A DNA stretch of 64,000 bases from Patescibacteria group bacterium (GTDB lineage Bacteria > Patescibacteriota > Microgenomatia > JAMCZE01), in the NCBI GenBank assembly GCA_023380635.1, contig JAMCRP010000001.1, positions 469,200 to 533,199 on the forward strand, given 5' to 3'. The position numbers were made by a program, and so were the translations under genes. The notes below the pieces were generated by a model. The model was not told the origin of the DNA. It did not search any database and was given only the letters and a program-made list of their open reading frames with translations. Positions 9,386-63,336 of the stretch are shown here, in pieces (position 1 is the first letter of the stretch; every line of letters begins with the position of its first letter).

Positions 9386-9400
9386 GTCTTGAATTATAGT

Positions 9401-9431
9401 ATCCGTGATAATCCGTTACTAATCCGTGTTA
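9401..9431. repeat. Three phased direct repeats (ATCCGT, spacing 10-11 bp) in the divergent rnhB / prgI-like promoter region
   Basis: ATCCGTGATA ATCCGTTACTA ATCCGTGTTA at 9401, 9411 and 9422. Confidence 0.4.
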
Positions 9432-9467
9432 ATCAAAAAATGTGGCTCTGTGAAAATCTAAACCCTA

Positions 9468-10826
9468 TTGTTTTTCATATTGGGCTTGCTATTCTGGTTG
9501 ATAATGGAGCAACACGCTGTCCCCCAGGATATCACCGGCTTCAAGTTTAAGCTTGTCGGCGACATGACCCTCAAACAATTTGGCGAGTTGGCCGGTGGGA
9601 CGGTTATTGCCTATCTCTTTTTTGCTTCCAACTGGAACCCGCTTTTAAAATGGCCCGGGGTCCTCTTTTTTGGTTTCCTGGGCTTTGCCCTGGCTTTTTT
9701 GCCGATCGAAGAACGCCCACTGGATATCTGGATCGTGAATTTTTTGAAGGCAATTTACCAGCCAACGCTTTACGTCTGGAAAAAGGGGGCCGTCACCCCG
9801 GCTTTCACTTCTGCTGTCAGTCCTAATCCCGGTCATGTTCCAACCAATCCCCAACCGGCAGTTATGCCTTGGCCGTTCACCGAACCGCAACCCGCAACCA
9901 AACCCGCGGCGCCCACCCCGCCGCCACCGGTAACCCCCGCTTCTCAGCCAGCCGCGCCCATGCCTCAAGTTTCTCCTGGTCCGGTAGCTGCTCCTCCGGC
10001 TCCAAAACCCGAAGCGGCGCCAAGCCCGAAACCGTCCGCCATCCAGCCACAGGCTCCTTTTCCGGCTGCCCAAAACGGGCCCACCATCTCCATTGAGGAC
10101 CTGCAAAAGCTACGCGATCAGAAGATGGCAGAACTTCAGGGCATTACTAAAAGAATGGAAAAGGCCCAGACGGACCTCAAAGCCGATCTTTACAAAGCCC
10201 AAAACGGCCCGCGGGTAGTTACCGTCGACGACCTGGCTCGCCGCCGGGATGAGAAAAAACAGGCCGACGAAACCCAGCTCCAGTCGCTGTTGGAAGAAAA
10301 CACCAAACTGATATCAGAAATCGAAAGCATTAAAACCCGGATTCAGGCTCTCGCCGGCTCGGACACCACCCAGCTCCAAACTCAGTTAAATAATCTTACC
10401 ACTTCGCAGCGGGGTTTAAGCGGACAAATTTCTCTTATTCAAACCCAACTAGAAGGCAAAAAACCGGAAGAAAAGCCCGTTGCTACCCAACCAACCCCCG
10501 ACAACCAGGTTAAGGTTGTCGAAAAACCCGTAGCCCGGGAAGCCAGCATTTCTCTAACTGATGTCCCCAATATTATTAACGGGACAGTAACCAACGAGAC
10601 CGGCGTTCCTCTGGACAGCGCAATTTTGATCATTAAGGATAAAGCCGGCAATTCCATCCGGGCCCTTAAAACGAACCAGATTGGCCAATTTATCGCCAGC
10701 ACCCCGCTCGAAAACGGGACTTACTATTTAGAGTTTGAGCGTCAAGGTTACGTTTTTGATGTCCTGGAAATTACTTTAAACGGGAAAGTTATCCAACCCT
10801 TAGAAATTCATGGCCGACACAGTTAA
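9468..10826 (+). CDS. PrgI/VirB3-like membrane protein with Pro-rich linker, coiled coil and C-terminal CarboxypepD_reg-like beta-sandwich
   Basis: Two N-terminal TM helices as in PrgI-family proteins that precede VirB4/PrgJ. C-terminal GTVTNETGVPLDSAILIIKDKAGN...GTYYLEFERQGY. TTG start. Confidence 0.45.
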   Translation: MFFILGLLFWLIMEQHAVPQDITGFKFKLVGDMTLKQFGELAGGTVIAYLFFASNWNPLLKWPGVLFFGFLGFALAFLPIEERPLDIWIVNFLKAIYQPTLYVWKKGAVTPAFTSAVSPNPGHVPTNPQPAVMPWPFTEPQPATKPAAPTPPPPVTPASQPAAPMPQVSPGPVAAPPAPKPEAAPSPKPSAIQPQAPFPAAQNGPTISIEDLQKLRDQKMAELQGITKRMEKAQTDLKADLYKAQNGPRVVTVDDLARRRDEKKQADETQLQSLLEENTKLISEIESIKTRIQALAGSDTTQLQTQLNNLTTSQRGLSGQISLIQTQLEGKKPEEKPVATQPTPDNQVKVVEKPVAREASISLTDVPNIINGTVTNETGVPLDSAILIIKDKAGNSIRALKTNQIGQFIASTPLENGTYYLEFERQGYVFDVLEITLNGKVIQPLEIHGRHS

Positions 10827-11475
10827 AACCGCCATCCGGGGCACGACCCAGATCTTTTTGGAAATCGCCGATATCCGCGACGATTTAGTTTTGCTGCCCG
10901 ACGGGTCCGTGGCCCTAATCGTTGGCGTTTCTGCCGTTAACTTCGGGCTGTTGTCCGAAAAAGAGCAGGAGGCCATTATTTTTGCTTACGCCGGCTTCCT
11001 TAACTCGCTTAACTTTGCCGTCCAGATTGTCGTCCGCAGCCAGCAAAAAGACATTTCCGCTTATCTGGAAAAATTAACTGCCGAAGAAAAGAAGCAAACC
11101 AACCCTCTTTTAGCCAAACAAATTGCTTCTTACCGGGATTTTATTCTGCAAACAGTTAAAGACAATAATGTTCTGGATAAAAAGTTTTATATCGTCGTTC
11201 CGTTTTCTTCACTGGAACTAGGAGCTGGATCAGCTACCAAAGGCTTAGTAAAAAAACAAAAGAAACTACCACTGCCGCCCGAGACTATTTTAGAAAAGGC
11301 CAAAACTGCCCTTTTTCCCAAGCGTGACCATGTCCTGCGCCAGCTGGGTCGGCTGGGTCTTAAAGCCAAACAACTGACTACTTCGGAGCTTATCGAGCTG
11401 TTTTACGACATTTACAACCCCCATAAGCAGCACCAGGAAAATTCCGGTTCTAAATTTGAAACGCTTACCCAATAA
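10810..11475 (+). CDS. VirB4/TraC/TrbE N-terminal domain protein (split from the following ATPase ORF)
   Basis: IFLEIADIRDDLVLLPDGSVALIVGVSAVNFGLLSEKEQEAIIFAYAGFLNSL..FAVQIVV matches the N-terminal region of Gram-positive VirB4 homologues. It overlaps the next ORF by 20 nt. Confidence 0.5.
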   Translation: MADTVKTAIRGTTQIFLEIADIRDDLVLLPDGSVALIVGVSAVNFGLLSEKEQEAIIFAYAGFLNSLNFAVQIVVRSQQKDISAYLEKLTAEEKKQTNPLLAKQIASYRDFILQTVKDNNVLDKKFYIVVPFSSLELGAGSATKGLVKKQKKLPLPPETILEKAKTALFPKRDHVLRQLGRLGLKAKQLTTSELIELFYDIYNPHKQHQENSGSKFETLTQ

Positions 11476-13441
11476 ACCTATGACTCTGCCCTTTTTTAAA
11501 AAGAAGCCAGTAGCTAATCAGCCCAGCCAGCCGGCACCCGACCGGAAGAGCGTCAGTACCACTCCTATCTCCCAATCACCGATTACTAACCAAGCCGTCA
11601 ACCGCCTCCAGCCAACCTCCCCCTCCTCTTCGGTTTTGGATATCATCGCCCCGGAAAAAATCGAGGTGGATTTTAATTTTGTCAAAATCAGCGAAACCTA
11701 TTTCCGGACTTTTTTTATCGCCAATTACCCCCGATTTGTGTCTGCCAGCTGGCTGTCGCCGATTATCGATTTTGACTCGTCCCAGGATCTGGCCATGTTT
11801 ATTTACCCGGTAGAATCCCGGGATATTCTGTCTAACTTAAAACGCAAAATTGCCGAAATGGAGGCAACTATCGAGTCGGACATTAAACGGGGGCATGTGG
11901 TCGACCCGGCCGTTCAGGTGGCTTTAGATGACGCTTTAGCCTTACAAGAACAGCTGGCCAAAGGGGCCGAACGATTTTTCCAGTTTGGTCTTTATGTCAC
12001 GATTAACGCCCAATCTTTGGACAATTTAGAGAAGGTCAGTAAGCAAGTGGAGTCGACTTTGGCCTCCTTGATGTTGGTTTCCAAAAAGGCCACCTTGCAA
12101 ATGGAAGACGGTTTTCGCACTACCCAACCGCTTTGTGTCGATAAACTGCTCATCACCCGCAATATGGATACCACATCTCTGGCCACGACTTTTCCGTTTA
12201 CTTCCTCAGAATTGACGGCCAACGAAGGAGTGATGTACGGCTTAAACGAGCACAACGGCAGTTTAATTATTTTTGACCGGTTTAGTTTGGAAAACGCCAA
12301 CGAGGTAGTATTAGGAAAAAGCGGCGGCGGAAAATCTTACCTGGTAAAACTGGAGGCTCTGCGTAGTTTAATGTTTGGGGCCAGTGTAATTATTATTGAT
12401 CCAGAGGAAGAATATGAACCCATAACCCGGGCCGTTGGGGGCGATTACCTCTCTTTTTCGTTTAGTAGTCAAACCCACATTAATCCTTTTGATTTAGCCG
12501 GCACCAACGATGACCCGCAGGAAAATGATTTGCAGTATAAAATCGGCTTTTCCTTAACCCGGCTCATTAAACTCATGGTAGGAACGACGACCGCCGAAGA
12601 CGACGCCATTATTCATAACGCCTTAGAGCTGACCTACAAACAAAAAGGCATTACCTACGACCCGACGACCCACAAAAAAGAACCGCCGATTCTGGAAGAT
12701 TTATATAAAGTTCTGGTCGGCATGGAAACGCCGGCGGCGGCCAATCTCGCCTTGCGCCTGGAAAAGTTTGTCAAAGGCAGTTTTGGGGCCATTTTTAACC
12801 AGCGCAGCAATCTCAAACTGGATAACCCGTTTACCGTCTTTTCCTTCAAAAATCTCGAGGACCAGCTTCGCAGTTTGGCAATTTTTATTATTGTGGACTT
12901 TATCTGGAATTCTATTAAACGCGACTTCAAAAAGCGGATCTTGATTGTGGATGAAGCCTGGTATCTTATGAAAGACCCTTCTTCGGCGGAATTTTTGTGG
13001 GGTTTTGCCAAGCGGGCCCGGAAATACTACCTGGGTTTAACTACCATCACTCAGGACATTGAAGATTTCTTAAGTTCCGACCTGGGCAAGACGATTATTA
13101 CCAATAGCAGTATCCAAATTTTAATGAAACAGTCACCGGCGGCGATCGACAAGTTGGGCGAGGTTTTTTACCTGTCTGAAGGCGAAAAAAGCTTGCTTAT
13201 GTCCGCCGGGGTTGGTCAAGGTCTCTTTTTTGCCGGTTCTTCCCATGTGGCTATGCGAACCATCGCTTCTCCCGATGAACATAAACTAATCACTACCAAT
13301 CCGTTGGAAAAGAGTAGTTCCACTACGGCGCAACCCGCCGGCCCAACTCTAGCTCAGCCGGTTACTCCTCCGGTTCCCACCACTCCACCTATTACCCCCG
13401 TATCACCCGCCTCTCCTACCCCTGAACCCGGACCGGCATAA
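11456..13441 (+). CDS. virB4: Type IV secretion VirB4/TrbE/PrgJ-like ATPase (central and C-terminal ATPase domains)
   Basis: Walker A LGKSGGGKSY, Walker B ILIVDEAWYL, QDIEDF/TNSS motifs; Pro/Thr-rich C-terminal tail. TTG start at 11456. Confidence 0.8.
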   Translation: MKRLPNKPMTLPFFKKKPVANQPSQPAPDRKSVSTTPISQSPITNQAVNRLQPTSPSSSVLDIIAPEKIEVDFNFVKISETYFRTFFIANYPRFVSASWLSPIIDFDSSQDLAMFIYPVESRDILSNLKRKIAEMEATIESDIKRGHVVDPAVQVALDDALALQEQLAKGAERFFQFGLYVTINAQSLDNLEKVSKQVESTLASLMLVSKKATLQMEDGFRTTQPLCVDKLLITRNMDTTSLATTFPFTSSELTANEGVMYGLNEHNGSLIIFDRFSLENANEVVLGKSGGGKSYLVKLEALRSLMFGASVIIIDPEEEYEPITRAVGGDYLSFSFSSQTHINPFDLAGTNDDPQENDLQYKIGFSLTRLIKLMVGTTTAEDDAIIHNALELTYKQKGITYDPTTHKKEPPILEDLYKVLVGMETPAAANLALRLEKFVKGSFGAIFNQRSNLKLDNPFTVFSFKNLEDQLRSLAIFIIVDFIWNSIKRDFKKRILIVDEAWYLMKDPSSAEFLWGFAKRARKYYLGLTTITQDIEDFLSSDLGKTIITNSSIQILMKQSPAAIDKLGEVFYLSEGEKSLLMSAGVGQGLFFAGSSHVAMRTIASPDEHKLITTNPLEKSSSTTAQPAGPTLAQPVTPPVPTTPPITPVSPASPTPEPGPA

Positions 13442-14555
13442 TAATGTGGAGAAAATTGTCGTCTTTAGGTAAGCGAAAAACCCCAGCAGTCAAGGGACCA
13501 TTAAAATCGATAATTAGTTCCGTGCTCCCCACTGCGACAAACAAATCCAAAAGGTAACGATAATTAAACGCCACCACAAACTCTTCGTCAGCGCCTTTTT
13601 TCACTGTAATATCAATCTCACTCTCGTTCTCGCCAACCTCCGGCGCGTTTGCGCTGATTTTCAGTTTTCCCTTGTCTATTTTAAGCTTAACAATATTGGC
13701 GCTGTCGCGGGCAAAAATTGAAGCTAACTTAATAGCTTTCGAAAACTCTTCGGTTGCGGCCGTAACCTGAATTGTCGAATTTGCAGGAATAATTTTCTCA
13801 TAGTCAGGAAAATTACCGGCAATTAGGCGGGAATATATTTTTATTTCTCCCAAGTCAAAGGCCACCTGATTGATTTCCGGCAGGTAAATCATGAGAAAAG
13901 CTTTCTCATTCTCCCCTTTTTCTTCTCCTAAAAGCCGGTTAACTTCCGCCAGAGTTTTTGCCGGAATAATAAACTTCGTCTCTTTCTGGCCGCCTTCAGC
14001 CGGAATCTTATTAACCGACAGCCGGAAACCATCGGTTGCCGCCAGGGTTAAACCAACTTCGTCGCTGCTAAACAAAACTCCCGTCAAAACCGCCCGGCTT
14101 TCATCCTGGCCAGCCGCAAAAGCTACTTTACTGACACCTTCCTGGAACGCCTTTTTGTCTATTTTCCACTGGGCTTTAGTCTTTTCTTCCGGTACCAGCT
14201 TAGGAAACTCTGTCGCCGGGGTCCCGGCAATTTTCCCTTTAAATTTACCCCCGGAAAGGGTCAAGACGCCGTCCTTTTGGCTTATGGTAAGTTTCTCTGC
14301 CGGCAAGCCTGCTACCAGCTCTAAAAAGGTCCGTCCCGGCACGGTGTATTCTCCAGCTGCTTCAATTTTAGCCCCAATAGAGGTCATGATTGTGGTTTCC
14401 AGGTTTGAGGCAGTAATCTGCAATTGCCCGGTTTCCGTGCGCAGAAGAATATTAGAAAGAATCGCCACCTGCGGCCGGCTGGCTAAAACCCGGGCAACGG
14501 TGTTTAGTCCCCGGTTAAGATTTTCCTGAAGAACTTCCAGCTCCATCGTCCCCAA
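13416..14555 (-). CDS. dnaN: DNA polymerase III beta sliding clamp
   Basis: Three-domain beta-clamp pattern, about 379 aa, immediately downstream of dnaA; the start could equally be the M4 codon at 14546. Confidence 0.9.
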   Translation of the reverse strand: MGTMELEVLQENLNRGLNTVARVLASRPQVAILSNILLRTETGQLQITASNLETTIMTSIGAKIEAAGEYTVPGRTFLELVAGLPAEKLTISQKDGVLTLSGGKFKGKIAGTPATEFPKLVPEEKTKAQWKIDKKAFQEGVSKVAFAAGQDESRAVLTGVLFSSDEVGLTLAATDGFRLSVNKIPAEGGQKETKFIIPAKTLAEVNRLLGEEKGENEKAFLMIYLPEINQVAFDLGEIKIYSRLIAGNFPDYEKIIPANSTIQVTAATEEFSKAIKLASIFARDSANIVKLKIDKGKLKISANAPEVGENESEIDITVKKGADEEFVVAFNYRYLLDLFVAVGSTELIIDFNGPLTAGVFRLPKDDNFLHIIMPVRVQG

Positions 14556-14692: not shown

Positions 14693-14833
14693 TGTGGATA
14701 TCTCTTAGGGGTGATTGTGAATATCTTTGAGGACAAACCTTCGGGGTTTGGGGATAAGTTGATAAGTTTTGGGGTTCTCCACTTATCCACAACTAGTTAA
14801 AAAAATATTCAGGAGTTATCCACAACTAGTTAA
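14693..14833. promoter_or_regulatory. oriC DnaA-box cluster and AT-rich region between dnaA and dnaN
   Basis: Perfect TTATCCACA at 14783-14791 and 14816-14824, each within an 18-bp direct repeat TTATCCACAACTAGTTAA. Degenerate boxes TGTGGATAT (14693), TGTGAATAT (14716) and GGGGATAAG/TTGATAAG (14746-14765). AT-rich stretch at 14570-14640. Confidence 0.6.
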
Positions 14834-16202
14834 CCAGGAGTTGTTGGAGTTGTTCTACTTCACCTCGGATACGCTCGTTGGTTTCTAATAAAGCCGAAAC
14901 TTTGTTAACGCCATGAATGATTGTGGTGTGGTCCCGGCCGCCGAGATAGTCGGCAATTTCTTCATAGGTCATTCCTCCCTTGTGGCGCAGGAGATACATG
15001 AGGATTTGCCGGGGTACGGCAATAGGCTTATCTCGCTTTTCGCCTTTAATAAGCTTTATTGGTAACTCGTAAAAAGCGCACACCCGGTCAACGATCAGCC
15101 GGGCGTCCAGCCTGGTTACCGCCTGAGCGGGAGTTTCTTTAATCTCCAGCACCTTTAGGACCAGTTCCGGAGTAAGTTCCAGTTTGTTTGCTTGAGCAGC
15201 CATAAGAATTTTTTGTAAGGCTCCCTCGAGAGACCGGATATTATCCACATTACTGGCAATAGAAAAGGCCACACTATTGGATAGTTCAATTCCTCGTTTA
15301 CGAGCTTTCTGCATACAGATAGCCGTCTTTAATTCTGAATCCGGTGTGGATATGTCGGCCACCATCCCGCCTTCAAACCGGCTGCGTAAGCGGTCGGCCA
15401 GATCAGCAATATCGGCGGGCTTGCGGTCGGAAGTCATGACAATCTGGCCGCCGTTTTGGGAAATGGCGTTAAAGGTATGGAAAAATTCTTCCTGGGCGGT
15501 ATCTTTACCGGAAAGAAACTGGATATCATCTATTAGTAAGGCGTCAGCCGACCGGTACCTTTCCTTAAATTCGGCCGTGTTTTTCGAGCGGATGCCGGCA
15601 ATAATTTCGTTGGTAAACTGCTCGCCGGGGGCAAAAATAATTTTAGCCCGCGGGTTTTTACGAAGTATCTCGTGGCCTACTGCCTGCATAAGGTGAGTTT
15701 TGCCCACGCCTACCCCGCCCCAAATAAACAGCGGGTTATAGTTTTTGCCGGGGTTTTGAGCCGTGGCCGTCGCGGCGGCAAAAGCCAGCTGATTACTGGT
15801 CGAGACGCAAAATTCTTCAAAGGTAAAATCAGGACGAAGGTGGCAACGCTTGATAGCGTCGAGTAGTTCTTGTTTATCTTCCTTGGGTTGGGCAAATAAC
15901 GGACCAGGTTCAGTTTTAGCTTCCGGTGTAGTTTGTGATTGGAGGCTAGTATCCACGTCAAAAACGAGACTTAATGGAGAAACGGTAGAGATTTTTTGTA
16001 AACTGTTTTGAATTAAGCTGTAATACCGAGAGCTTGTTGATTGGGCAACACCCTTATTCTTAAAACCTAATTTGGCAACACCATTTTCCAGAGAAAGAAG
16101 TGTACTATTTTTTAAATAAATGCCGAAATTATTTTTTCCAAGCTCGACCTCAAGTTCTCCAAGTGTAGCCTTCCATAAATCATGAAGTTGATCGTTGTTC
16201 AT
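14826..16202 (-). CDS. dnaA: Chromosomal replication initiator DnaA
   Basis: AAA+ Walker A GGVGVGKTHL and a C-terminal DnaA-box binding domain. The start is taken at the ATG at 16202 (MNNDQLHDLW...), which matches DnaA N-termini. The ORF-track start at 16244 would place the DnaA boxes inside the CDS. Confidence 0.9.
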   Translation of the reverse strand: MNNDQLHDLWKATLGELEVELGKNNFGIYLKNSTLLSLENGVAKLGFKNKGVAQSTSSRYYSLIQNSLQKISTVSPLSLVFDVDTSLQSQTTPEAKTEPGPLFAQPKEDKQELLDAIKRCHLRPDFTFEEFCVSTSNQLAFAAATATAQNPGKNYNPLFIWGGVGVGKTHLMQAVGHEILRKNPRAKIIFAPGEQFTNEIIAGIRSKNTAEFKERYRSADALLIDDIQFLSGKDTAQEEFFHTFNAISQNGGQIVMTSDRKPADIADLADRLRSRFEGGMVADISTPDSELKTAICMQKARKRGIELSNSVAFSIASNVDNIRSLEGALQKILMAAQANKLELTPELVLKVLEIKETPAQAVTRLDARLIVDRVCAFYELPIKLIKGEKRDKPIAVPRQILMYLLRHKGGMTYEEIADYLGGRDHTTIIHGVNKVSALLETNERIRGEVEQLQQLLVN

Positions 16203-16243
16203 GTGGATAGCGGCAGTATGCCCTATCTTACAAGTTATCCACA
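16203..16243. promoter_or_regulatory. DnaA boxes immediately upstream of dnaA (autoregulatory or oriC upstream cluster)
   Basis: TGTGGATAG at 16203-16211 and a perfect TTATCCACA at 16235-16243. Confidence 0.5.
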
Positions 16244-16305
16244 AAAATTCAAGGTATCTTACTAGGTCATCTTTACTCTAATAAACAGAGAATTAAACTT
16301 ATATC

Positions 16306-16349: not shown

Positions 16350-16877
16350 ATGGTCAATAAAAATAATCCTGAAGTAAGACTCTACCGATCAGAAAAAGAC
16401 GTTAGGCGAGGTGATCTCCGGCAACTCATTACCCACTTTAGGGATGTTCTGAAACTGGAGCTTCAGGGAGACGACCTTGATTGGCTAGTTGGTCTTTTTC
16501 AAAACAGCCGTGTAGTGGCTAATAGCCGATTTGAAATAATTTTACCGAATGACACGGTGGTTATGGAAACTCTCCGTCGGGACAGAAAAATAACCCGCTG
16601 TTATTTAGTGCGGGGTATAGATGACCCCAAAAGGATCCATTTACAAGTAAACAGCAGAATTAAAAAAAGAGATATCTATCAAAGGAATGCGGAAGTTGAT
16701 GGTATTTTCCCTTTCCGTATTACAGGTATCAGAGAATCTGGTTCCTCGGACGGCGACCTTCTTACATTTTGTGCTTTAGGAACCCATGGTGGGGTGACGA
16801 TTACAGAAGACGGTAGGGTTGAGTTTCACCAGATGAACAACGAAGAACACAAGACTTTACATAGGCTTCATCTTTAA
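16350..16877 (+). CDS. Hypothetical protein (175 aa) inserted between dnaA and rpmH
   Basis: Clean ORF with its own promoter-like signal; no recognisable motif. Confidence 0.5.
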   Translation: MVNKNNPEVRLYRSEKDVRRGDLRQLITHFRDVLKLELQGDDLDWLVGLFQNSRVVANSRFEIILPNDTVVMETLRRDRKITRCYLVRGIDDPKRIHLQVNSRIKKRDIYQRNAEVDGIFPFRITGIRESGSSDGDLLTFCALGTHGGVTITEDGRVEFHQMNNEEHKTLHRLHL

Positions 16878-21919: not shown

Positions 21920-24406
21920 GTGAGCCCTGCTGCCAAAATTACTGTCGAAACGAACGAAAGCGCGCCCCTGGCAGTCGTTTATAACACTGGCGATTTAAGT
22001 CTGGCGGTGAGGCGGGCGCTCAAAAAACAGCACCTGCGCGTCCTGCACCTGGAAAACGAGGCCACTCCCCTGCCTGTTTTAGAACACCCGGCCTACATTT
22101 TTTTCTTCATTAGTGATCAGGTTCCGCTGGCGAACGCAAAATTGCAGTTTCAGGAAGCAGTCAGCAGCGCCGGCGCCAATGGGGCCAAAGTAGTTTTGAT
22201 TTTAGATAATGTTCAAAACTTTTACGAGAAAGTGCTGGCGTCTCAGGCGGAAAAATTGGGCTGGCCGCTTTCACTAGCCGAAGTTCATGGGGAGATGGAC
22301 GGGCCGGCCGGACCAACTACGGAAGCTGCCGCCGGAAAAATAGTGCGCCTGGCTTTTTCGTCCGGCGCCGGACATCGGCAGATGATCATGGGTAAAAATA
22401 AGGGGACGCCGGTTCAAAGCAACTTTCCCGAAAGGCACTTGTCGGCTCAGGATGTTTTCGACCGCTTAAACAAATTTAATCGCCGCCGCCCTCCGCCGCT
22501 AAAAAAATACGCCACGATTACTCTGGTATTAGCCCTGTTTTTTGGCATTTTGTCCCCCCTGTTTTTAATGGGAGCCGTCTCTTTAAAGGCGGTGTTTGAA
22601 TTAAGCCAGGCCAAGGAAATGCTTATAACCGGCCGCTTTACGCCAGCCGAGAGTTTGGCGACACAGGCAAAACAGGATCTGGTTTATTCCCAAAATATCG
22701 CCCGCTTTTTCGGGCCGCTTCTGATCGGTTTCAGTGGCCCCATGAACCGGTACTATGATCTGCTTTCTGTTGGCGAAACCGGAGCGGATGTGGCCGCCCG
22801 GGCGGCCCGTTTGGGACCCCTGGCAGATCTGGCAGCAAAAAGCTTTCTTAACGGAGGGCAAAACTTAAGCGCCCTGTCCTCGCAAATTCAAGACGAGACA
22901 GGGCCCCTTAATCAGGATCTGGGGTTAATTGAAGCCCAGGTGGGCGGCCTGTCGCCGGCTTCCTTGGGACTGCTTTCTTTTATGGGGGTTCCAGCTGGAA
23001 AAATTAAAACTTACGCCGGGGAAATTCCCCGGGTCCGTCAGCTCTTGACCCAGGCCGATCTGGTGCTTTCCGCCTGGCCTCAGATTGTGCCGGCCGAGGG
23101 TAAAAAGACCTATCTGGTAGTTTTTCAAAACAGTGCCGAGTTGCGGCCTACCGGCGGGTTCATTGGTTCCTACGGACTGGTCCGGTTTAATAACGGGAAG
23201 CTTCTGGATTGGAAAATTTACGATATTTACACGGCCGACGGCAAGCTTGCCGGGACGATTACCCCGCCGGATGAGATCCTGCAGTTCATGGGCCAGCCGG
23301 ACTGGTATATGCGTGACAGTAACTGGGCGGCAGATTTTCCTTTGACAGCTAAACGCTTGGAATGGTTTTTAGAAAAAGAAACCGGCGAAACAGCTGATGG
23401 CGTGATTGCCGTCAATCTGGGAGCAGTTCAAAAGCTTCTGGAGGCTACCGGACCGTTGAATTTGCCCGATTTTGACCAGACGGTTTCAGCCTCAGACTTT
23501 TTTCAGAAGGCGGAATATTCTTCGGAAATTAATTTTTTTGCCGGCTCCAGCCAAAAACAGGATTTTCTGGGGGGTGTGGCCCGGGCAATTTTGTCTAAGT
23601 TGACAACCGATGACGATAAGAATTATCCGGCTATAGCCAATGCTCTGGTAGCTAGCCTTAATGAAAAAAACATCCTTCTCTATTTTAACGGCACCGAAGC
23701 TCAAAAAGCCGTTTTTGGGGCCGGCTGGTCAGGAAGTATTGTTACTCCCGACTGTCAAAAGAAAGGCAGCAATTGCCTGATGCTCGTGGAAGCTAACTTG
23801 GGAGCCAATAAAGCCAATTATTTTGTCAAGCGCTCGCTGCGAGTGGATTCGACGGTCAGTAAAGGCGGCGATATTGAAAATACCGTGACGGTTCTTTACC
23901 GCAACGATTCCCCGTCTGACACTTGGCCGGGCGGTAAATACAAAAACTACCTGCGGTTTCTGGTACCGGCCGGTTCAAAGCTAATTAGTTTCGATCTGGG
24001 TGACGGCCGCAAGCCGGCGGTTTCCCCAACTTTAACCGCCGAGGAACTCTCAAAAGTCGCCCCTGATGAGTTTTTTGTCTTCCAGACGACAGAAAACAAT
24101 TATGCTAGTTTTGGAACCCTGGTGGAAATTCCTATTGAATCCGACCAGACGGTAACTTTCCGTTATCGTCTGCCGGACAAACTCTCGTTTGCCAACACTA
24201 AAACCACTTATGAGTTTCATCTTCTCAAACAGCCGGGAACAAGCGGCGACCTTTTTGATTTTTCCTTAGACTACCCCTCTTTCCTGTCTCCGGTTCAAAA
24301 GAATCTGGCAAGCACGGTTCCTCTTGTCTTTAACCAGAAGCTTATATATAATTCAGATCTAACCCAGGATCGGGATTTTGAGGTTAATTTTGAAACAAAG
24401 CTATGA
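21920..24406 (+). CDS. DUF4012-like large cell-surface protein with an N-terminal TM
   Basis: 828 aa; VVFQNSAELRPTGGFIGSYG motif characteristic of the DUF4012 family. Confidence 0.5.
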   Translation: MSPAAKITVETNESAPLAVVYNTGDLSLAVRRALKKQHLRVLHLENEATPLPVLEHPAYIFFFISDQVPLANAKLQFQEAVSSAGANGAKVVLILDNVQNFYEKVLASQAEKLGWPLSLAEVHGEMDGPAGPTTEAAAGKIVRLAFSSGAGHRQMIMGKNKGTPVQSNFPERHLSAQDVFDRLNKFNRRRPPPLKKYATITLVLALFFGILSPLFLMGAVSLKAVFELSQAKEMLITGRFTPAESLATQAKQDLVYSQNIARFFGPLLIGFSGPMNRYYDLLSVGETGADVAARAARLGPLADLAAKSFLNGGQNLSALSSQIQDETGPLNQDLGLIEAQVGGLSPASLGLLSFMGVPAGKIKTYAGEIPRVRQLLTQADLVLSAWPQIVPAEGKKTYLVVFQNSAELRPTGGFIGSYGLVRFNNGKLLDWKIYDIYTADGKLAGTITPPDEILQFMGQPDWYMRDSNWAADFPLTAKRLEWFLEKETGETADGVIAVNLGAVQKLLEATGPLNLPDFDQTVSASDFFQKAEYSSEINFFAGSSQKQDFLGGVARAILSKLTTDDDKNYPAIANALVASLNEKNILLYFNGTEAQKAVFGAGWSGSIVTPDCQKKGSNCLMLVEANLGANKANYFVKRSLRVDSTVSKGGDIENTVTVLYRNDSPSDTWPGGKYKNYLRFLVPAGSKLISFDLGDGRKPAVSPTLTAEELSKVAPDEFFVFQTTENNYASFGTLVEIPIESDQTVTFRYRLPDKLSFANTKTTYEFHLLKQPGTSGDLFDFSLDYPSFLSPVQKNLASTVPLVFNQKLIYNSDLTQDRDFEVNFETKL

Positions 24407-27974: not shown

Positions 27975-29156
27975 ATGTGCAAGGCAGTTGCTATTTTTCT
28001 CTGCGGCTTCGTTGTTTTTCTTCTTTTTGCGCCAAAACCGGCCTTGGCCCAAGGCTACGAATTGCTACCGGCAGGGCAGAGTATTGATTCTGATTATTTC
28101 CGCACCGGCCAAACAGTACAGATTGACGGGGATATTCATGGAGACGCCTTTCTGGCCGGCGGGGTGGTGACGGTAAACGGCAAAATCGACGGGGACTTGT
28201 TTGTTCTTGGAGGCAAAGTTAATGTAAATGGGGAAGTGGGTAACAGCATTCGTGTAGTTGGCGGGGATGTCACTATTAATGCCCCGGTCAGCCGGAACAC
28301 CTTGTTAATTTGTGGAAATTGTAGTGTCACTAAACAGTCAACTATCGGTGGTAGTTTATTAGTAACTGCAGCTAATCTGGAACTATCCGCTGCGCAAATT
28401 GGTCGTGGCTTCCGTTTTTTTGGCAGCCGACTTTATTTAAACTCGCCGATTAATAATGAAGCGTATGTGGTTGCCAATCGGGAATTTTTGCTCGGCCCCC
28501 AGGCTTCCATTTCCAGCAGCTTAAAATACACCGGAAACTCCGAAGCCGTTCTGGAACCAGGAGCCACGATCGCCGGAAATATTTCTTATCAGAAAGAAAA
28601 CCCGGATACCAATTACCCGCGCTTTTTCGGAGCCCGGACCTTGTTGTCGTCTTATCAGAGAATTAAGCCGATTACGGAAGTTTTGGGTTTTGTGGTTTCT
28701 GCTTTAATCGGCTTTTTGCTTCTGGGGCTTTTTCCCCGGATTTTTGAAAAAACAGTCATGGCTATGGAAAACCGGCCGGCCGCTTCTTTTGGCTGGGGAA
28801 TAATTATCGCTTTAATGGCGCCGCTGGTTGTGGTTTTGTTTGCCATTACAATTGTAGGAATTCCAGTATCGCTGGTGCTTCTTCTGGTCGGTTCGCTGGC
28901 CTGGGTCGGGGCTCAATATTTAACGGCTTTCTTTATTGGCCGGAAGATAATGCTACCGCGGTTTGGCGAAAGACGGGGTTGGGCTTTGCTTTTGGGGTTG
29001 TTTTTGATCGCGCTTTTGGGATTAATTCCCATTGCCGGAGCCTTAGTTAAGATGCTTCTGGTGGTTTTTGCTCTGGGAGCAGCCGTTTTGGCCTACAAGC
29101 AACCGGTGATTATTGAACCCCGGCTGTTGGGGCACCGGCGAAAGTCAAGGTCTTAA
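27975..29156 (+). CDS. Bactofilin/CcmA-like beta-helix repeat protein with signal peptide and C-terminal multi-TM domain
   Basis: Repeated G.V.VNG.IDGD.F..GG.V.VNG beta-helix units; four C-terminal TM helices. Confidence 0.5.
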   Translation: MCKAVAIFLCGFVVFLLFAPKPALAQGYELLPAGQSIDSDYFRTGQTVQIDGDIHGDAFLAGGVVTVNGKIDGDLFVLGGKVNVNGEVGNSIRVVGGDVTINAPVSRNTLLICGNCSVTKQSTIGGSLLVTAANLELSAAQIGRGFRFFGSRLYLNSPINNEAYVVANREFLLGPQASISSSLKYTGNSEAVLEPGATIAGNISYQKENPDTNYPRFFGARTLLSSYQRIKPITEVLGFVVSALIGFLLLGLFPRIFEKTVMAMENRPAASFGWGIIIALMAPLVVVLFAITIVGIPVSLVLLLVGSLAWVGAQYLTAFFIGRKIMLPRFGERRGWALLLGLFLIALLGLIPIAGALVKMLLVVFALGAAVLAYKQPVIIEPRLLGHRRKSRS

Positions 29157-38079: not shown

Positions 38080-38298
38080 ATGGAGCTGCTTAATCTTTTA
38101 CAATTTAGCATTTTTATTAAGCTTTTCTTTGCGGTTCTGATGCTTTTGTACTTTGTTTTTACAGTAGTGGTTTACCGGCAGATTGTCCTTATGACCCAGG
38201 TGCTGAACAGCAAGATCTCTCCGCTGTTTAAGATGATAGCTTTGGGGCAAGTTGTGGCTGTAGGAATTCTTTTCTTTCTAGGGATATTGCTGGTTTAG
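38080..38298 (+). CDS. Small membrane protein (72 aa, 2 TM)
   Basis: Hydrophobic ORF tightly coupled to the upstream gene. Confidence 0.35.
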   Translation: MELLNLLQFSIFIKLFFAVLMLLYFVFTVVVYRQIVLMTQVLNSKISPLFKMIALGQVVAVGILFFLGILLV

Positions 38299-38849
38299 TT
38301 GCAAGCGCTCCATAATCCGCGATCCTGAAATTTAGCTTCTTCAGCGGCGGCATTAAACTGGCTGGCAAAATGCAAATCGGGGGCAAGGGGCAGAGGTCTA
38401 GCATAACCCTGCCGCACAAGATAATCATTCACAAAGATTTCCCGGCCGGAACTGTCAGTGGCGTAGACATAGCGCAGTAATCGGCCGTATTTATCCCGGT
38501 TGGTGGTGTCTTTTTCCAGACGGATAGTTTTACCCGCCAGTAATTTTTCGTTTTCGGCTTTAGCTTCCGGGGCAAAACATTGGGGTTGCTTATTCATGTC
38601 TGCCATTTCCGGAGTATTAATCCCGATGTAGCGCACCCGCCGGCCATCGGTTAAAGCAATGGTGTCACCGTCTATAACTTTAGCCACGGTGGGATTTTCT
38701 ACTGTTTCACTAACTTCAGCCGAGGTTTGCTGGTCGAGGATTAACTGCGCGCCCAGACCGGAGGTAGCCACCCGGGCTAGGATTAAAGCGCAAGCGACCA
38801 GAATAAGGCCACATGAGGAAAGAACAAGAAAACTGTGCTTTTGGTCCAT
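38295..38849 (-). CDS. Thermonuclease family protein (secreted SNase-like nuclease)
   Basis: Signal/TM then DGDTIAL...RVRYIGINTPE...GRLLRYVY staphylococcal-nuclease motifs. Confidence 0.8.
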   Translation of the reverse strand: MDQKHSFLVLSSCGLILVACALILARVATSGLGAQLILDQQTSAEVSETVENPTVAKVIDGDTIALTDGRRVRYIGINTPEMADMNKQPQCFAPEAKAENEKLLAGKTIRLEKDTTNRDKYGRLLRYVYATDSSGREIFVNDYLVRQGYARPLPLAPDLHFASQFNAAAEEAKFQDRGLWSACN

Positions 38850-38915
38850 TAATTAATATTACCAGTTTTTATGGGGCCGTGGTGGTTGGCAGGGGCGAGG
38901 CCACGAGGGTGGTAG

Positions 38916-39617
38916 CTACCGCGGCGCGTTCACGGCAGCGGAAGGTGTTGCTACTGGTGGGGTTGGCTGGGAGAAGTCTTTAACCAGGGTTACTTCGGTA
39001 ATGGTGTTGAGTTTGTTATCCCACATTCCTCGAATCATCACCCGGTGGCCGGCGATAATTGTTGAGGGGTTAATCGTTTTCATCCGGCGGTCGAGATACC
39101 GGGTAGTTTTGCCGGCAGTGACTGTCTGTTGAGGCCGGGCCAGAGGCTGGAAAATAAAGCCGGTGGCGTTTGTACTAACAATTGTTCCTACAAAAGTGCC
39201 CCGGCGTTTTTGGATGGAAATATCGCGGACCAGCCGGGCGTTCACGGCGGTTTGGGTGGTGTTGGTCCATTTGCCGAAAGCTTGCACCTGGTCGCCGACA
39301 CTAAATTCTGAAAAAGCCGATCTGGCCCCGAACTGGCGCAACAAAATTGTTGTCGGCGTTAAGTTTACCGTCACGCCGTTAATGACGAAATTATTGGTGC
39401 CCAGAGAAGAAATCGTTCCGGCGAGTTTGGCAATTGTGCTTCGCGTTTGCGCCTGCGCAGTGATTTTTTCCTGAAGCTGACCGGCACTACTAGCTGCTCT
39501 GACTGAATTGTTGACTATGGGTGGGGTAACCGTAGTGACCACAGCGAAAGCCGTCGAACTGGCTAAAACAGTGGAAGTTAAAAAGACGACGGAACCGGTT
39601 AAAAATTTTCTGGTCAT
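38916..39617 (-). CDS. Hypothetical secreted protein (DUF5666-like beta repeats)
   Basis: Signal peptide plus repeated ..VGD.V...G.. beta units. Confidence 0.4.
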   Translation of the reverse strand: MTRKFLTGSVVFLTSTVLASSTAFAVVTTVTPPIVNNSVRAASSAGQLQEKITAQAQTRSTIAKLAGTISSLGTNNFVINGVTVNLTPTTILLRQFGARSAFSEFSVGDQVQAFGKWTNTTQTAVNARLVRDISIQKRRGTFVGTIVSTNATGFIFQPLARPQQTVTAGKTTRYLDRRMKTINPSTIIAGHRVMIRGMWDNKLNTITEVTLVKDFSQPTPPVATPSAAVNAPR

Positions 39618-40255
39618 GAGCCGGCAGGCTGATAGGTAACGGTTAATTCCCGTTCGGAGGTTTGGCCGTTTTCATCAACGGCGTCAATCACTATGGGATT
39701 ATCGCCTTCAGACAGGGTAAGAGTAGCCGAGAATTTGCCGGTGGCGTCGGCTTTAGTATCAATTTCATTAACGGATACATCAGCCCTGGCGGAAGTGGTT
39801 CCGGTAACTTTGATAGTAGCTGTGGTTACGGTCACATTGTTTACTGGTGTGGCAATCGTTAAAGGAATTTCGTCAATTGGTTGCGGCGAGGCGGGGGGCT
39901 GGGGAGCTGTAGGTGGAGTTTGAGTTGGGGTTTTTGGCACCAGCGGCGGATTAGCGGCTGGAGTCGTTGTTTGAGCTTTATTGCCGGTTAAGCTGCCAAG
40001 CATTTGCGGGTTGGACATGATCAAAAAAGCGCCGGCGCCAACCAAGACAACGACTAAAATGATCCCTGCAATGGCTAAAAAGTTCCATTTGTCGGAAGAA
40101 GCCTCTGCTGCTACCGGTGGAGGATTAACCGAGACTGTTTGTCCAACCGGATTAGCAGACGGGGGAGTAATAGGTGTGGGTGCAGGTGACGGAGCAACAG
40201 GAGCAGCGGGATTGGTTGGTCCTGACTGGGCCGGGGTAGTATTTGCAGAATCCAT
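39614..40255 (-). CDS. Hypothetical Pro-rich membrane-anchored protein with a C-terminal Ig-like domain
   Basis: Pro-rich N-terminus, one TM and a beta-sandwich-like C-terminus. Confidence 0.4.
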   Translation of the reverse strand: MDSANTTPAQSGPTNPAAPVAPSPAPTPITPPSANPVGQTVSVNPPPVAAEASSDKWNFLAIAGIILVVVLVGAGAFLIMSNPQMLGSLTGNKAQTTTPAANPPLVPKTPTQTPPTAPQPPASPQPIDEIPLTIATPVNNVTVTTATIKVTGTTSARADVSVNEIDTKADATGKFSATLTLSEGDNPIVIDAVDENGQTSERELTVTYQPAGS

Positions 40256-60874: not shown

Positions 60875-63238
60875 ATGGATTTGGTGGCCAACTTTTCGAC
60901 CTTTATGGTGGGTTTGGTCTTCGTCTTAATCGGCCTGGGTCTTCTAGCCGGTGTGGGCGCGGTAGCGGGCTATTTTTTTCTCCAATTCTATAAATGGCGG
61001 GGGCGGGAGGACAATGCCTTAACTTTTGTCACTCTCCAGGTGGCCGTGCCCAAAGATAACGAGATCAAAATTGACGCCATGGAGCAGTTTTTTGCTTCCC
61101 TGTACACTCTTTTTAAAAGCAAGAAGATGTTTTTTGATATGCTGGATTTAACCTGGTCAGTGCCCCAGGATCATCTCGCTTTTGAAATTGTCGGCCAGCC
61201 GGGCGATATCCGTTTTTATATTTCCGTCCCTTCAAAGCACCGCGAGTTGATCGAAAAGCAGATTCATGGCACCTATCCGGGAGCGATGGTGACGGAAGTT
61301 GAGGACCCTAACATCTTTACGGAAAACGGGGAAGTGGCTTACGCTTCCCTCAAATTAAAATCTTCCAACTACTATCCCATTAAAGTTTTCCGCGATCTGG
61401 CCGTTGACCCGATGTCTTTAATTACCTCGTCACTGGCGAAGTTAAACCCGGGCGAAGCGGCGGCCATACAATATGTTGTGGCGCCGGCGGACGGGAAGTG
61501 GCGCTCCCAGGGCCGAAGATTTATTTCTAAAACCAAGAAAAACGAAGCCGATCCGGAAAAGGCTCGGTTTAATGTTGACGCCAAAACGCTGGAGGCGATT
61601 GAAAACAAAACCAGTAAGCCAGGTTTTGCAACTTCTATCCGGATTGTGGCCAACGCTCCTACCAAAGAAGAGGCCAAAGTGATCCTGGATAATTTAAAAA
61701 GCTCGTTTACCCAGTTTTCCTCGGACCAGAATAATTTTAAAAACGACAAGATCCGTATCCAGCAGAATTTTATGACGGATTTCATTTACCGCTTCCAGCC
61801 GCTGTTCGCCAAGCCGCCGGTCTTAACTTCCGAAGAACTGGCGACGGTTTTCCATTTTCCCAATAAATCGATCGAAACGCCCAATATTTTCTGGCTCAAC
61901 GCCAAACGGGCGCCGGCCCCGCAGGAGATTCCCGAAAAAGGCGATATTTACCTGGGTAAATCCATTTACCGCGGCCAGGAGCGGCCGGTCAGTCTGCTTA
62001 ATCCGGACCGCCGACGCCATGTCTATATTGTCGGCGCCACCGGAACGGGAAAATCCACACTTTTGGCCCAGATGATTTTGCAGGACATTAGGGCGGGCCG
62101 GGGAGTGTGCTTTATTGATCCCCATGACACCTACGAGCAAGTTATGGAAAGTATTCCGCCGGAAAGAGCCGAAGATGTCATTTATTTCGATGTTTCCGAT
62201 CACGAACGGCCGTTCGGTTGGAACATCATGGAAGCAAAAGATGACTATGAGCGGCATATGACGGTGACCGGCTTTATCGGGTTACTTTACAAGCTTTTTG
62301 ATCCGCACCAGACCGGTATTGTCGGCCCGCGTTTGGAACATTCTGTCCGTAACGCCATGTTAACCGTGATGGAAGCGGAACCGCGGGGAACTATTATCGA
62401 AGTGATGCGCGTCCTGCAGGATCCGGGCGGCCCGTATCTTCAGGAACTCCTGCCTCGGGTAACCGATCCGTTGGTGAAACGCTTCTGGACGGAGCAAATT
62501 GCCGCTACAAGCGAGTTTCATAAGTCGGAAACTTTGGACTACATTGTTTCCAAATTCGGCCGGTTTGTCACCAATAAATTAATGCGCAACATCGTAGGTC
62601 AGTCCCAAAGTTCGTTTAATTTCCGCCAAGCCATGGACGAGGGAAAAATCATTATCGTCAATCTGGCCAAAGGTTTAATCGGGGAAGAGAATAGCTCCTT
62701 TATGGGCACACTTCTGGTCCCCAAAATTCTTTCCGCCGCGACTTCCCGGCAGAATATTCCCGCCGAAGCCCGCCGGGATTTTTATCTTTATGTTGACGAG
62801 TTTCAAAACTTTGCCACCCCGGATTTTGCCACGATTTTGTCTGAGGCCAGAAAGTACGCCCTTAATTTAACTGTCGCGAATCAGTTTATCGCCCAGGTCG
62901 AAGAAGACATTAAAAATGCGATTTTTGGCAATGTCGGCACGAAGATCGCCTTCCGGGTGGGTGTCGCCGACGCCCAGTTTTTGGCCCATGAGTACGCTCC
63001 CACCTTTGGCGAATCGGATTTAATTAAGGTTGAAGCTTTTAACGCCTATGTCAAAACCCTGGTAAATAACGAACCGACTTCGGCCTTCAGTTTGGAAATT
63101 GATCATGATTTTGGCAAAATCAATGCCCAGCGCAACAAAAAAGTGGCGGAAATGATTAAAGAATTGTCTTCCCTTAAATACGGCCGCGATGTTCGGGAAG
63201 TGGAAGCGGAAATCGCTTCCCGAAGCCACCTCTTTTAA
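60875..63238 (+). CDS. Type IV secretion coupling-protein-like ATPase (VirD4/TraG/TraD family, TraG-D_C-like C-terminus)
   Basis: N-terminal TM, Walker A GATGTGKST, Walker B LYVDEFQNF, ARKYALNLTVANQF...NVGTKIAFRV. Confidence 0.6.
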   Translation: MDLVANFSTFMVGLVFVLIGLGLLAGVGAVAGYFFLQFYKWRGREDNALTFVTLQVAVPKDNEIKIDAMEQFFASLYTLFKSKKMFFDMLDLTWSVPQDHLAFEIVGQPGDIRFYISVPSKHRELIEKQIHGTYPGAMVTEVEDPNIFTENGEVAYASLKLKSSNYYPIKVFRDLAVDPMSLITSSLAKLNPGEAAAIQYVVAPADGKWRSQGRRFISKTKKNEADPEKARFNVDAKTLEAIENKTSKPGFATSIRIVANAPTKEEAKVILDNLKSSFTQFSSDQNNFKNDKIRIQQNFMTDFIYRFQPLFAKPPVLTSEELATVFHFPNKSIETPNIFWLNAKRAPAPQEIPEKGDIYLGKSIYRGQERPVSLLNPDRRRHVYIVGATGTGKSTLLAQMILQDIRAGRGVCFIDPHDTYEQVMESIPPERAEDVIYFDVSDHERPFGWNIMEAKDDYERHMTVTGFIGLLYKLFDPHQTGIVGPRLEHSVRNAMLTVMEAEPRGTIIEVMRVLQDPGGPYLQELLPRVTDPLVKRFWTEQIAATSEFHKSETLDYIVSKFGRFVTNKLMRNIVGQSQSSFNFRQAMDEGKIIIVNLAKGLIGEENSSFMGTLLVPKILSAATSRQNIPAEARRDFYLYVDEFQNFATPDFATILSEARKYALNLTVANQFIAQVEEDIKNAIFGNVGTKIAFRVGVADAQFLAHEYAPTFGESDLIKVEAFNAYVKTLVNNEPTSAFSLEIDHDFGKINAQRNKKVAEMIKELSSLKYGRDVREVEAEIASRSHLF

Positions 63239-63262: not shown

Positions 63263-63336
63263 GGATCCGTAGCTCAATGGTAGAGCAGATGTCTTATACA
63301 CATCATGTTGTAGGTTCGAGTCCTACCGGATCCACC
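63263..63336 (+). tRNA. tRNA-Ile with anticodon UAU (decodes AUA)
   Basis: Hand-folded cloverleaf: acceptor GGATCCG/CGGATCC, D-stem GCTC/GAGC, anticodon stem GATGT/ACATC with loop CTTATAC, 5-nt variable loop, T-stem GTAGG/CCTAC with TTCGAGT loop, discriminator A and CC encoded. Confidence 0.8.

Follow-up and report, generated by a model that had tools for sequence, protein, structure and literature searches.

A PrgI/VirB3-like, TrsD-like and VirB4 operon beside the probable replication origin of a Microgenomatia-type patescibacterium

The patescibacterial type IV secretion system (T4SS) is nearly universal in a phylum that holds a large share of bacterial diversity, and no T4SS before it had been shown to be essential to the bacterium that carries it. 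A survey of 3,035 patescibacterial genomes found VirB4 in 2,417, as a clade nested in MPF-FATA, with TrsD as the most abundant partner, PrgI/VirB3 homologues present and almost no relaxases (Quinonero-Coronel et al. 2025, Microb Genom, PMC12102498). According to the same survey, coupling proteins are mostly encoded far from virB4, arrays of VirB2-like pilins are frequent at the loci, and virB4 lies near dnaA/dnaN in Microgenomatia and Paceibacteria, which its authors read as a gene-dosage effect (PMC12102498). In the Saccharibacterium Southlakia epibionticum SEML1_0006-0019 is an experimentally essential T4SS locus, and transposon sequencing (Tn-seq) found VirB4 (SEML1_0008), a hypothetical protein of 293 amino acids (aa; SEML1_0009) and a 300-aa PrgI-family protein (SEML1_0010) all to be essential for growth as an epibiont (Wang et al. 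2023, PMC10633639); the coupling protein is non-essential in this species (per PMC12102498). Possible pili and macromolecule uptake are discussed in a 2025 review (PMC12857230), and possible T4SS pili have been described in a cultured Microgenomatia strain (bioRxiv 10.64898/2026.06.21.733656). Here we analyse a stretch of 64,000 nucleotides (the window, to which all positions refer) in which three tightly coupled genes, spanning 9504-13441 on the + strand, encode a PrgI/VirB3-like protein, a TrsD-like protein and VirB4.

This locus is an ordinary patescibacterial T4SS core, and the main points about it were already published in 2025, so that the window adds one more example. It shares with the T4SSs of the patescibacterial clade the order PrgI-family, TrsD-like, VirB4, a chromosomal place near dnaA/dnaN, an MPF-FATA VirB4, the lack of a relaxase nearby and a coupling protein encoded elsewhere. 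Saccharibacteria carry a pilin array, a VirB6-like gene and a hydrolase gene beside the core genes, whereas the window has the three core genes only; and SEML1_0010, with 300 aa, bears a helical extension, whereas the PrgI-family protein of the window has 440 aa and ends in a beta-sandwich. A first-pass annotation of this stretch, made from its sequence, had called the architecture atypical. Against textbook T4SSs this stands, but within the phylum the arrangement is standard and published (PMC12102498).

Similar arrangements exist in Bacillota. Separate TrsD-like genes lie 5' of VirB4 genes of ~600-620 aa on 405 plasmids, mostly of Bacillota, and TrsD/TrsE of pGO1 are the prototype of the TrsD-containing MPF-FATA conjugation systems. 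On Geobacillus pLW1071 and on a Pontibacillus megaplasmid, as in the window, the TrsD-like protein is encoded immediately 5' of VirB4, and the Bacillota TrsD proteins are 24-32% identical to the TrsD-like protein of the window. The order on the Pontibacillus megaplasmid (pilin-like, VirB6/TrbL-like, small PrgI/TraL-like, TrsD-like, VirB4 of the CD1110 family, 1050-aa M23 peptidase) is also the order in a patescibacterial relative, locus L003, and on pLW1071 a T4SS_pilin gene comes first, then a gene that joins a two-transmembrane (2-TM) segment to a TrsD-like domain, then those of VirB4 and an M23 peptidase. These systems differ from the window in sitting on plasmids, pLW1071 being typed as conjugative with a relaxase and an FtsK-like coupling gene, and their VirB3-position proteins are either small or 2-TM segments fused to TrsD-like domains, without a coiled coil or beta-sandwich. 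A reading of the 2-TM N-terminus of pLW1071 as PrgI-like, that is, of a VirB3-TrsD fusion, was rejected, as it gave no hhalign or Pfam match. With regard to pilins, the pLW1071 gene (L085 6356-6580) matches PF18895 T4SS_pilin with 30.2 bits (cutoff 26.6), and that of the Pontibacillus plasmid (L086 3249-3704) is annotated as a Mbov_0395 pilin-like protein; to our knowledge, the literature states that MPF-FATA systems are without VirB2 pilins. This pilin-bearing TrsD-VirB4-M23 subclass of Bacillota may be the source of the pilin-bearing T4SSs of Patescibacteria.

Two further systems serve for comparison. In pCF10 of Enterococcus faecalis, as in the window, prgI is directly 5' of the ATPase gene, and residues 222-776 of PrgJ are homologous to VirB4. 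PrgJ is, however, a single polypeptide of 796 aa that includes the N-terminal ~220 residues, PrgI has only 117 aa, and pCF10 also has a relaxase, an adjacent type IV coupling protein (T4CP), VirB6, VirB8 and VirB1 homologues and adhesins. For R388, TrwM (VirB3) and TrwK (VirB4) are known from cryo-electron microscopy (7O41, 8RTB, 8RTD), and the P-loop domain is homologous to that of the window's VirB4, but this is a Gram-negative system with an outer-membrane complex, in which VirB4 is one chain and VirB3 is small. The N-terminal domains of R388 VirB4 are membrane-embedded, join protomers into dimers and contact VirB3 and VirB8, and R388 is our structural template for the proposed VirB3-VirB4 anchoring.

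The three genes and their products

The genes and the catalytic motifs of VirB4 are as follows.

9504..10826, + strand: prgI-like gene, 440 aa from ATG 9504 (maximal open reading frame 9468-10826 from TTG 9468, 452 aa)
10810..11475, + strand: trsD-like gene, 221 aa
11480..13441, + strand: virB4, 653 aa from ATG 11480 (maximal open reading frame 11456-13441 from TTG 11456, 661 aa)
12314..12337, + strand: Walker A motif GKSGGGKS of VirB4, residues 279-286 of the 653-aa protein, read from the translation
12950..12955, + strand: Walker B acidic pair D491-E492 of VirB4, in ILIVDEAW, invariant in alignment A1

The three maximal open reading frames (ORFs) lie where the first-pass annotation had placed them. 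Database entries 100% identical to the window proteins are 440 aa and 653 aa long, and homologue alignments begin at the residues encoded from ATG 9504 and ATG 11480, so that these later codons are probably the true starts of the prgI-like gene and virB4. The stop of the prgI-like gene and the start of the trsD-like gene overlap by 17 nt, and a gap of 4 nt separates the end of the latter from ATG 11480.

The profile matches of the large protein identify it as the VirB4 ATPase of a Gram-positive MPF-FATA system of CD1110 type, in agreement with the Gram-positive type proposed earlier. It matches NCBIfam NF045971 (CD1110 family) over positions 185-735 of 752 with 382.4 bits (cutoff 325, E=4e-114), and it also matches the NCBIfam models for Mycoplasma-ICE VirB4, TraC and VirB4_CagE, the Pfam families P-loop_TraG (E=8.5e-29), AAA_10 and CagE_TrbE_VirB (21 bits), the Thermoanaerobacter VirB4 domain of PDB 4AG5 (E=6.5e-45) and R388 TrwK (E=7e-6). 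The protein begins with a low-complexity stretch of ~50 residues, followed by the remaining N-terminal domain, the P-loop domain and a Pro/Thr-rich tail (~600-653). Both ATPase motifs are intact, and K280, S281, G282, G284, K285 and S286 of Walker A are invariant in alignment A1, which comprises 14 homologues. We found more than 7,900 VirB4 homologues, the best 120 at 60-90% identity, the named ones all being Patescibacteria (Gottesmanbacteria, Microgenomates), and judging from the sequence the organism is a patescibacterium of Microgenomatia/Gottesmanbacteria type.

This ORF had been described as the ATPase core. It is indeed VirB4, but it holds part of the N-terminal domain as well: PF03135 matches residues 77-220, and matches only from model position 60. 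Aligned by hhalign with pCF10 PrgJ (796 aa), VirB4 covers residues 222-776 only (E=1.8e-28), so that ~220-221 N-terminal residues are missing, a size that fits the separate 221-aa protein. The split lies inside the N-terminal domain, and the 221-aa protein holds only about 180-220 residues from the start of a canonical VirB4. The window's VirB4 does not carry a complete N-terminal domain on one polypeptide, and what it lacks corresponds to the separate TrsD-like product.

The 221-aa protein matches positions 129-233 of the VirB4_plasma model (894 positions; E=3.8e-8), positions 28-121 of the CD1110 VirB4 model (752 positions; E=3.8e-5) and the NCBIfam TrsD/TraD family NF041427 (E=9.5e-8). Its assignment to the VirB4 N-terminal region at first pass is borne out, and significant matches to VirB4 models were obtained for both the 661-aa and the 221-aa ORF, on which that annotation had made its reading depend. 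The two proteins tile full-length VirB4 models colinearly and without overlap, the CD1110 model at 28-121 and 185-735 and VirB4_plasma at 129-233 (TrsD-like) and 293-892 (VirB4). Furthermore, the TrsD-like protein aligns by hhalign with the corresponding TrsD-like portion of the protein from Geobacillus pLW1071 (E=4e-9), and the top ten PDB folds for its AlphaFold2 model (predicted local distance difference test, pLDDT, 73) are all R388 TrwK/VirB4 chains, these fold matches being weak (E=6e-3 to 6e-2, TM-score 0.37). Precomputed annotation lists PF26593 TraC-like for an identical protein and for all 120 homologues listed; our Pfam scan left PF26593 unmatched and returned only weak matches to TraC_F_IV and DUF7789. 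By profile and fold comparison the TrsD-like protein is homologous to the N-terminal part of VirB4, and its separation from VirB4 is a known arrangement, found also on Bacillota plasmids, rather than a pseudogene or a gene fission specific to this lineage.

The first gene product had been described as a two-TM PrgI-like protein with a Pro-rich linker, a coiled coil and a CarboxypepD_reg-like beta-sandwich, and each of these parts was recovered. The protein matches PrgI PF12666 with E=6e-4 (20.8 bits), under the Pfam cutoff, and CarboxypepD_reg with E=1.6e-7. Within its family PrgI PF12666 is matched at E<=1e-3 by 38/39 members (best E=1.7e-10) and CarboxypepD_reg by 37/39, and a total of 744 homologues was found. 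An AlphaFold2 model, as had been suggested for this protein, gave a membrane hairpin of helices 23-41 and 46-65 followed by helix 72-95, with block-mean pLDDT of ~77-96, and the following domains.

9570-9788, + strand: two membrane helices and third helix, residues 23-95 (AlphaFold2)
9792-10076, + strand: Pro-rich disordered linker, residues 97-191 (AlphaFold2)
10092-10451, + strand: three long helices, residues 197-316 (AlphaFold2)
10578-10811, + strand: transthyretin/CnaB-like beta-sandwich, residues 359-436 (AlphaFold2, Foldseek)

The modelled beta-sandwich resembles the transthyretin-like domains of carboxypeptidase D and CnaB-type domains in a Foldseek search of the PDB; CnaB-type domains occur in Gram-positive surface proteins. 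Among 120 family members, N-terminal hydrophobic segments number two in 63 and one in 51, and no member has a membrane segment beyond the hairpin. The charge distribution, with K+R at 2.6 for the N-terminal flank, 1.0 for the hairpin and 4.9 for the C-terminal flank, predicts by the positive-inside rule an N-in/C-in orientation with both ends cytoplasmic. A cytoplasmic extension is also predicted from other systems, in which TrsD or VirB4, both cytoplasmic, are joined on at this junction. The Pro-rich spacer, coiled coil and beta-sandwich should accordingly be looked for in the cytoplasm, yet the beta-sandwich has a fold typical of extracellular proteins.

Canonical VirB3 is a protein of 10-15 kDa with short cytoplasmic tails (PMC12857230). 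Here ~340 residues follow the VirB3-like part, so the protein has neither the small size nor the short tails of its canonical counterpart. This C-terminal extension is kept across relatives, in which the stretch that begins with the match to the PrgI domain and ends with that to the beta-sandwich measures 815-1430 nt; an HMM (hidden Markov model) search found no further PrgI-domain or beta-sandwich paralogues in the 64-kb window, and we found no discussion of the extension in the cited patescibacterial T4SS literature, supplementary text included. Tentatively, and with a chance that we consider rather low, VirB3 may have been rebuilt in this lineage into a large 440-aa subunit whose extension is a cytoplasmic dock for substrates or adaptors beside the VirB4 barrel or, if the topology were inverted, a cell-wall stalk. 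A built-in dock would replace the coupling by relaxosome and T4CP, and a VirB3-anchored, wall-spanning stalk would stand in for the missing VirB8/VirB10-type parts; with either topology the inner-membrane complex of the T4SS would have a structure not described before. The conserved extension goes modestly beyond the published survey and is the sole part of the locus that might repay more work, and it poses a concrete, testable structural question relevant to those working on cultured Microgenomatia or Saccharibacteria systems.

One DNA element precedes the operon.

9441..9503, + strand: candidate promoter/operator, GTGAAAATC...TTGTTTTTCATATTGGG... with a TGAAAA/TTTTCA inverted repeat

It overlaps the extension from the TTG start that had earlier been counted within the 452-aa ORF. 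By eye, the GTGAAAATC...TTGTTTTTCATATTGGG element is also seen 5' of the prgI-like gene in the related loci L002 and L005 and partly in L087. The L002 copy lies ~100 nt 5' of the gene and out of frame, so that conservation is at the level of DNA and not of a coding sequence. A scan of the operon region for sigma-70 consensus promoters gave promoter-like sites at chance level, and a terminator scan of the same region gave a modest excess of terminator-like sites and no clear terminator. Short direct repeats, TATCCGT and then TAATCCGT twice, occupy 9400-9430, where the RNase HII gene and the prgI-like gene diverge and their promoters would lie. The 64 kb hold no other exact copy of TAATCCGT than these two, and the repeats are not conserved in the relatives examined.

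Position beside the origin and conservation among relatives

The operon is followed by genes of chromosome replication.

13416..14555, - strand: dnaN, DNA polymerase III beta clamp (precomputed Pfam DNA_pol3_beta domains on an identical contig)
14693..14824, no strand: DnaA-box cluster and candidate oriC in the dnaN-dnaA spacer, with two perfect and two one-mismatch TTATCCACA boxes
14826..16244, - strand: dnaA (precomputed Pfam Bac_DnaA and Bac_DnaA_C)

The 3' end of virB4 overlaps that of the convergent dnaN by 26 bp. The 64-kb window has four perfect TTATCCACA boxes, all at 14783-16243, and a DnaA-box scan gave 32 matches where chance alone would give 12. Between ~14 and 20 kb the sign of the GC skew changes. 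From these positions and the skew the operon, ~1.3 kb from the DnaA-box cluster, lies directly beside the probable origin, as the first-pass annotation had held. The T4SS operon runs toward dnaA/dnaN in 59/62 loci, the position of oriC being presumed in the relatives. It would presumably meet the fork from that origin head-on, which is unusual for a highly conserved operon.

We compared 82 related loci, locating neighbour genes by tblastn. A PrgI-domain gene, usually including the beta-sandwich, and a trsD-like gene stand 5' of virB4 in 65 of the 67 loci with enough upstream sequence, and dnaN or dnaA is found within 10 kb in 49 of the 51 loci with at least 9 kb of downstream sequence (~96%). 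The comparison with Saccharibacteria that had been proposed earlier gives the same PrgI-TrsD-VirB4 order for SEML1_0008-0010. That the trio is almost invariably contiguous in this Microgenomatia-type group goes modestly beyond the published survey. The convergent dnaN/virB4 arrangement recurs in most relatives, virB4 directly abutting dnaN also in L007, L019, L029, L034 and L040, and a VirD4-like homologue lies directly 5' of, and divergent from, the prgI-like gene in L009, L012, L015, L018 and L024.

A long gene (286-1229 aa, median 783 aa) stands between virB4 and dnaN in 25 of the loci, for example in L003 (11888-15040) and L045 (11828-14179). Its product combines a coiled coil and a multi-pass membrane region rich in Gly/Ala with a hydrolase-like domain at the C-terminus (an M23 peptidase by Pfam in L003), and it may be a combined VirB6/VirB1-like component. 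By tblastn this gene is not in the window, and the 214 ORFs lying between virB4 and dnaN in relatives have no match there at E<=1e-5.

The operon is also strongly conserved in sequence. Median amino acid identity is 59% for VirB4, against 43% for DnaA and 37% for DnaN, VirB4 being the higher in 50/50 loci; with medians of 51% and 52%, the TrsD-like protein and the PrgI domain likewise lie above DnaA. In the closest relative, L087, the VirB4 core is 92% identical against 74% for DnaN, and nonsynonymous divergence (dN) is far below synonymous divergence (dS), although the dN/dS ratios are only rough because dS is saturated (1.1-3.4, or undefined). The better conservation of VirB4 than of DnaA and DnaN in every genome compared again goes modestly beyond the published survey, and supports a housekeeping-grade role. 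Conservation and synteny together point to a vertically inherited, strongly constrained core machine and not to a decaying mobile element. The readings as a horizontally acquired island or as a remnant of an integrated conjugative element (ICE) were rejected on conservation, synteny and composition.

The proposed system and the alternatives to it

The remaining T4SS gene of the window is distant from the operon.

60875..63238, + strand: VirD4-like coupling protein (T4CP), 787 aa (Pfam), 47.4 kb from virB4

This partner, whose distance had already been given as 47 kb, has two N-terminal hydrophobic segments and a P-loop, matches TrwB_AAD_bind (33.9 bits, cutoff 20.5) and TraG-D_C (30.8 bits, cutoff 22), and matches NCBIfam TraD/CD1115 weakly. 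The window was swept with Pfam over most ORFs larger than ~100 aa, together with the precomputed annotation of an identical contig, and the genes found besides those of the T4SS are housekeeping genes only. In this sweep neither a relaxase or integrase nor VirB6/TrbL, VirB8, a VirB1-type hydrolase or a T4SS pilin appeared, in keeping with the earlier remark that relaxase, VirB6 and VirB1 are absent nearby. A 393-aa protein with 6 membrane segments (27975-29156) was considered as VirB6 and rejected, having no counterpart in the T4SS neighbourhoods of the 82 relatives. Indeed, none of the window's unannotated ORFs was found in those neighbourhoods, so that no hidden T4SS partner was identified. 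The GC content of the locus is unremarkable, and no integrase, repeats, flanking tRNA or composition shift that would mark a mobile element was seen around the operon. Of the parts of a conjugative element, relaxase and integrase families are missing among the ORFs scanned, the T4CP-like gene is not adjacent, and the flanks are housekeeping genes. The earlier suggestion of a chromosomally fixed and probably non-conjugative apparatus agrees with the synteny, with the conservation and with the lack of any mobile-element Pfam family among the ORFs scanned.

We consider it very probable that the three genes encode the motor, and its anchor in the membrane, of a vertically inherited patescibacterial T4SS, non-conjugative and tied to host contact. 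By analogy with R388 and pCF10, the VirB3-like hairpin and the helix that follows it would tether the VirB4 ATPase to the membrane, and the TrsD-like protein would supply in trans the N-terminal ~200 residues absent from VirB4. A VirB4 hexamer would hydrolyse ATP to assemble the remaining machine, for which VirB2-like pilins, a VirB6-like channel and a cell-wall hydrolase are presumably encoded outside the window, and would also drive macromolecule transfer at contact with a host bacterium; the system would not be conjugative. The analysis itself shows the homology, the intact ATPase motifs, the operon structure, the synteny beside oriC and the strong sequence conservation. What we propose of subunit contacts, a pilus, what the substrate is and which way it moves, and a role in host dependence is drawn from such analogies, the last being extrapolated from the essentiality by Tn-seq of the orthologous PrgI-TrsD-VirB4 genes of S. 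epibionticum.

Several observations weigh against this interpretation. The PrgI match falls under the Pfam cutoff of 27, and the VirB3-like protein is 3-4 times the size of canonical VirB3. The match of the 221-aa protein to NF041427, at 32 bits, is under the cutoff of 200. Furthermore, hhalign of the PrgI-like family (alignment A2) with the single sequence of pCF10 PrgI (E=0.019, probability 2%) and of the TrsD family (alignment A3) with that of pCF10 PrgJ (E=0.22) is not significant, and as a profile against a single sequence is too weak, the link to the pCF10 prototype is carried by the Pfam and NCBIfam family models. Finally, the window itself is without a pilin, VirB6, VirB8 or hydrolase gene by the Pfam sweep, so that a complete machine is only presumed for the genome.

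The alternative that survives best, although unlikely, is that the same hardware is an importer, which takes up DNA or RNA of the host or further macromolecules in the manner of archaeal Ced or Helicobacter ComB, with no export of effectors. VirB4 has a weak NCBIfam similarity to the DNA-import ATPase CedB (51 bits, E=1e-13), and both ATPases are weakly similar to CedD (NCBIfam). Patescibacteria are without nucleotide synthesis (PMC12857230), in a cultured Microgenomatia strain RNA is acquired from the host and tubular structures are seen at the interface with it (bioRxiv 10.64898/2026.06.21.733656), and the absence of a relaxase argues against DNA export. However, the match to the conjugation VirB4 of CD1110 type is far stronger than that to CedB (382 against 51 bits), in S. 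epibionticum the T4SS is essential though DNA uptake by ComEC is dispensable (PMC12857230), and the sequence contains nothing that would fix which way transport runs.

It is distinctly unlikely that the module only builds a surface filament or adhesin for attachment to the host, with VirB4 as a pilin-dislocation motor and no passage of substrate. VirB4 is a pilus-biogenesis ATPase in Gram-negative systems, and the frequent VirB2-like pilin arrays and the non-essential coupling protein of S. epibionticum (PMC12102498) fit such a role, but the window has no pilin gene and a VirD4-like gene is kept here, and beside the operon in five relatives, which suggests that substrate coupling is retained. 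Most improbable of all is a decaying remnant of an ICE that has lost its relaxase, channel and hydrolase genes and with them a working machine: just three T4SS genes stand together, the hydrolase gene of 25 relatives is missing and the coupling-protein gene is 47 kb off, yet across 50 genomes DnaA/DnaN are less well conserved than VirB4, the TrsD-like protein or the PrgI domain, ORFs and catalytic motifs are intact, the place beside dnaN/dnaA is fixed in ~96% of relatives, virB4 abuts dnaN in other relatives also, and the marks of a mobile element are missing. The three genes are thus best read, with the strength given above, as the anchor and motor of a T4SS tied to host contact.

Other features of the window and of the records compared

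Directly 3' of the VirD4-like gene is the sole tRNA gene of the window, a tRNA-Ile with anticodon UAU (63263-63336). On the - strand, 38295-40255 encodes a homologue of staphylococcal nuclease bearing a hydrophobic segment at its N-terminus, a DUF5666 protein and a protein with an Ig-like/glucodextranase-B domain, a cluster that is predicted to be membrane-anchored or secreted, with possible surface or nucleic-acid-scavenging functions, and that is unlinked to T4SS loci in relatives.

In many records of metagenome-assembled genomes (among loci L005-L084, third-party annotation), clearly patescibacterial contigs appear under the titles 'uncultured Gammaproteobacteria', 'Pseudomonadales' or 'Candidatus Methanoperedens', which look like taxonomic mislabels.

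Near the origin, a 175-aa orphan ORF (16350-16877) lies between dnaA and rnpA, without a Pfam or NCBIfam match or a homologue in the 82 loci; L002 has an unrelated 720-aa protein of no known family at the same spot, which appears to be variable. The conserved gene order of the origin region includes yidC, jag, a Wzy-like gene, a polysaccharide synthesis gene and the gene of an 828-aa DUF4012 protein (21920-24406), which recurs near the T4SS operon in 19 related loci.

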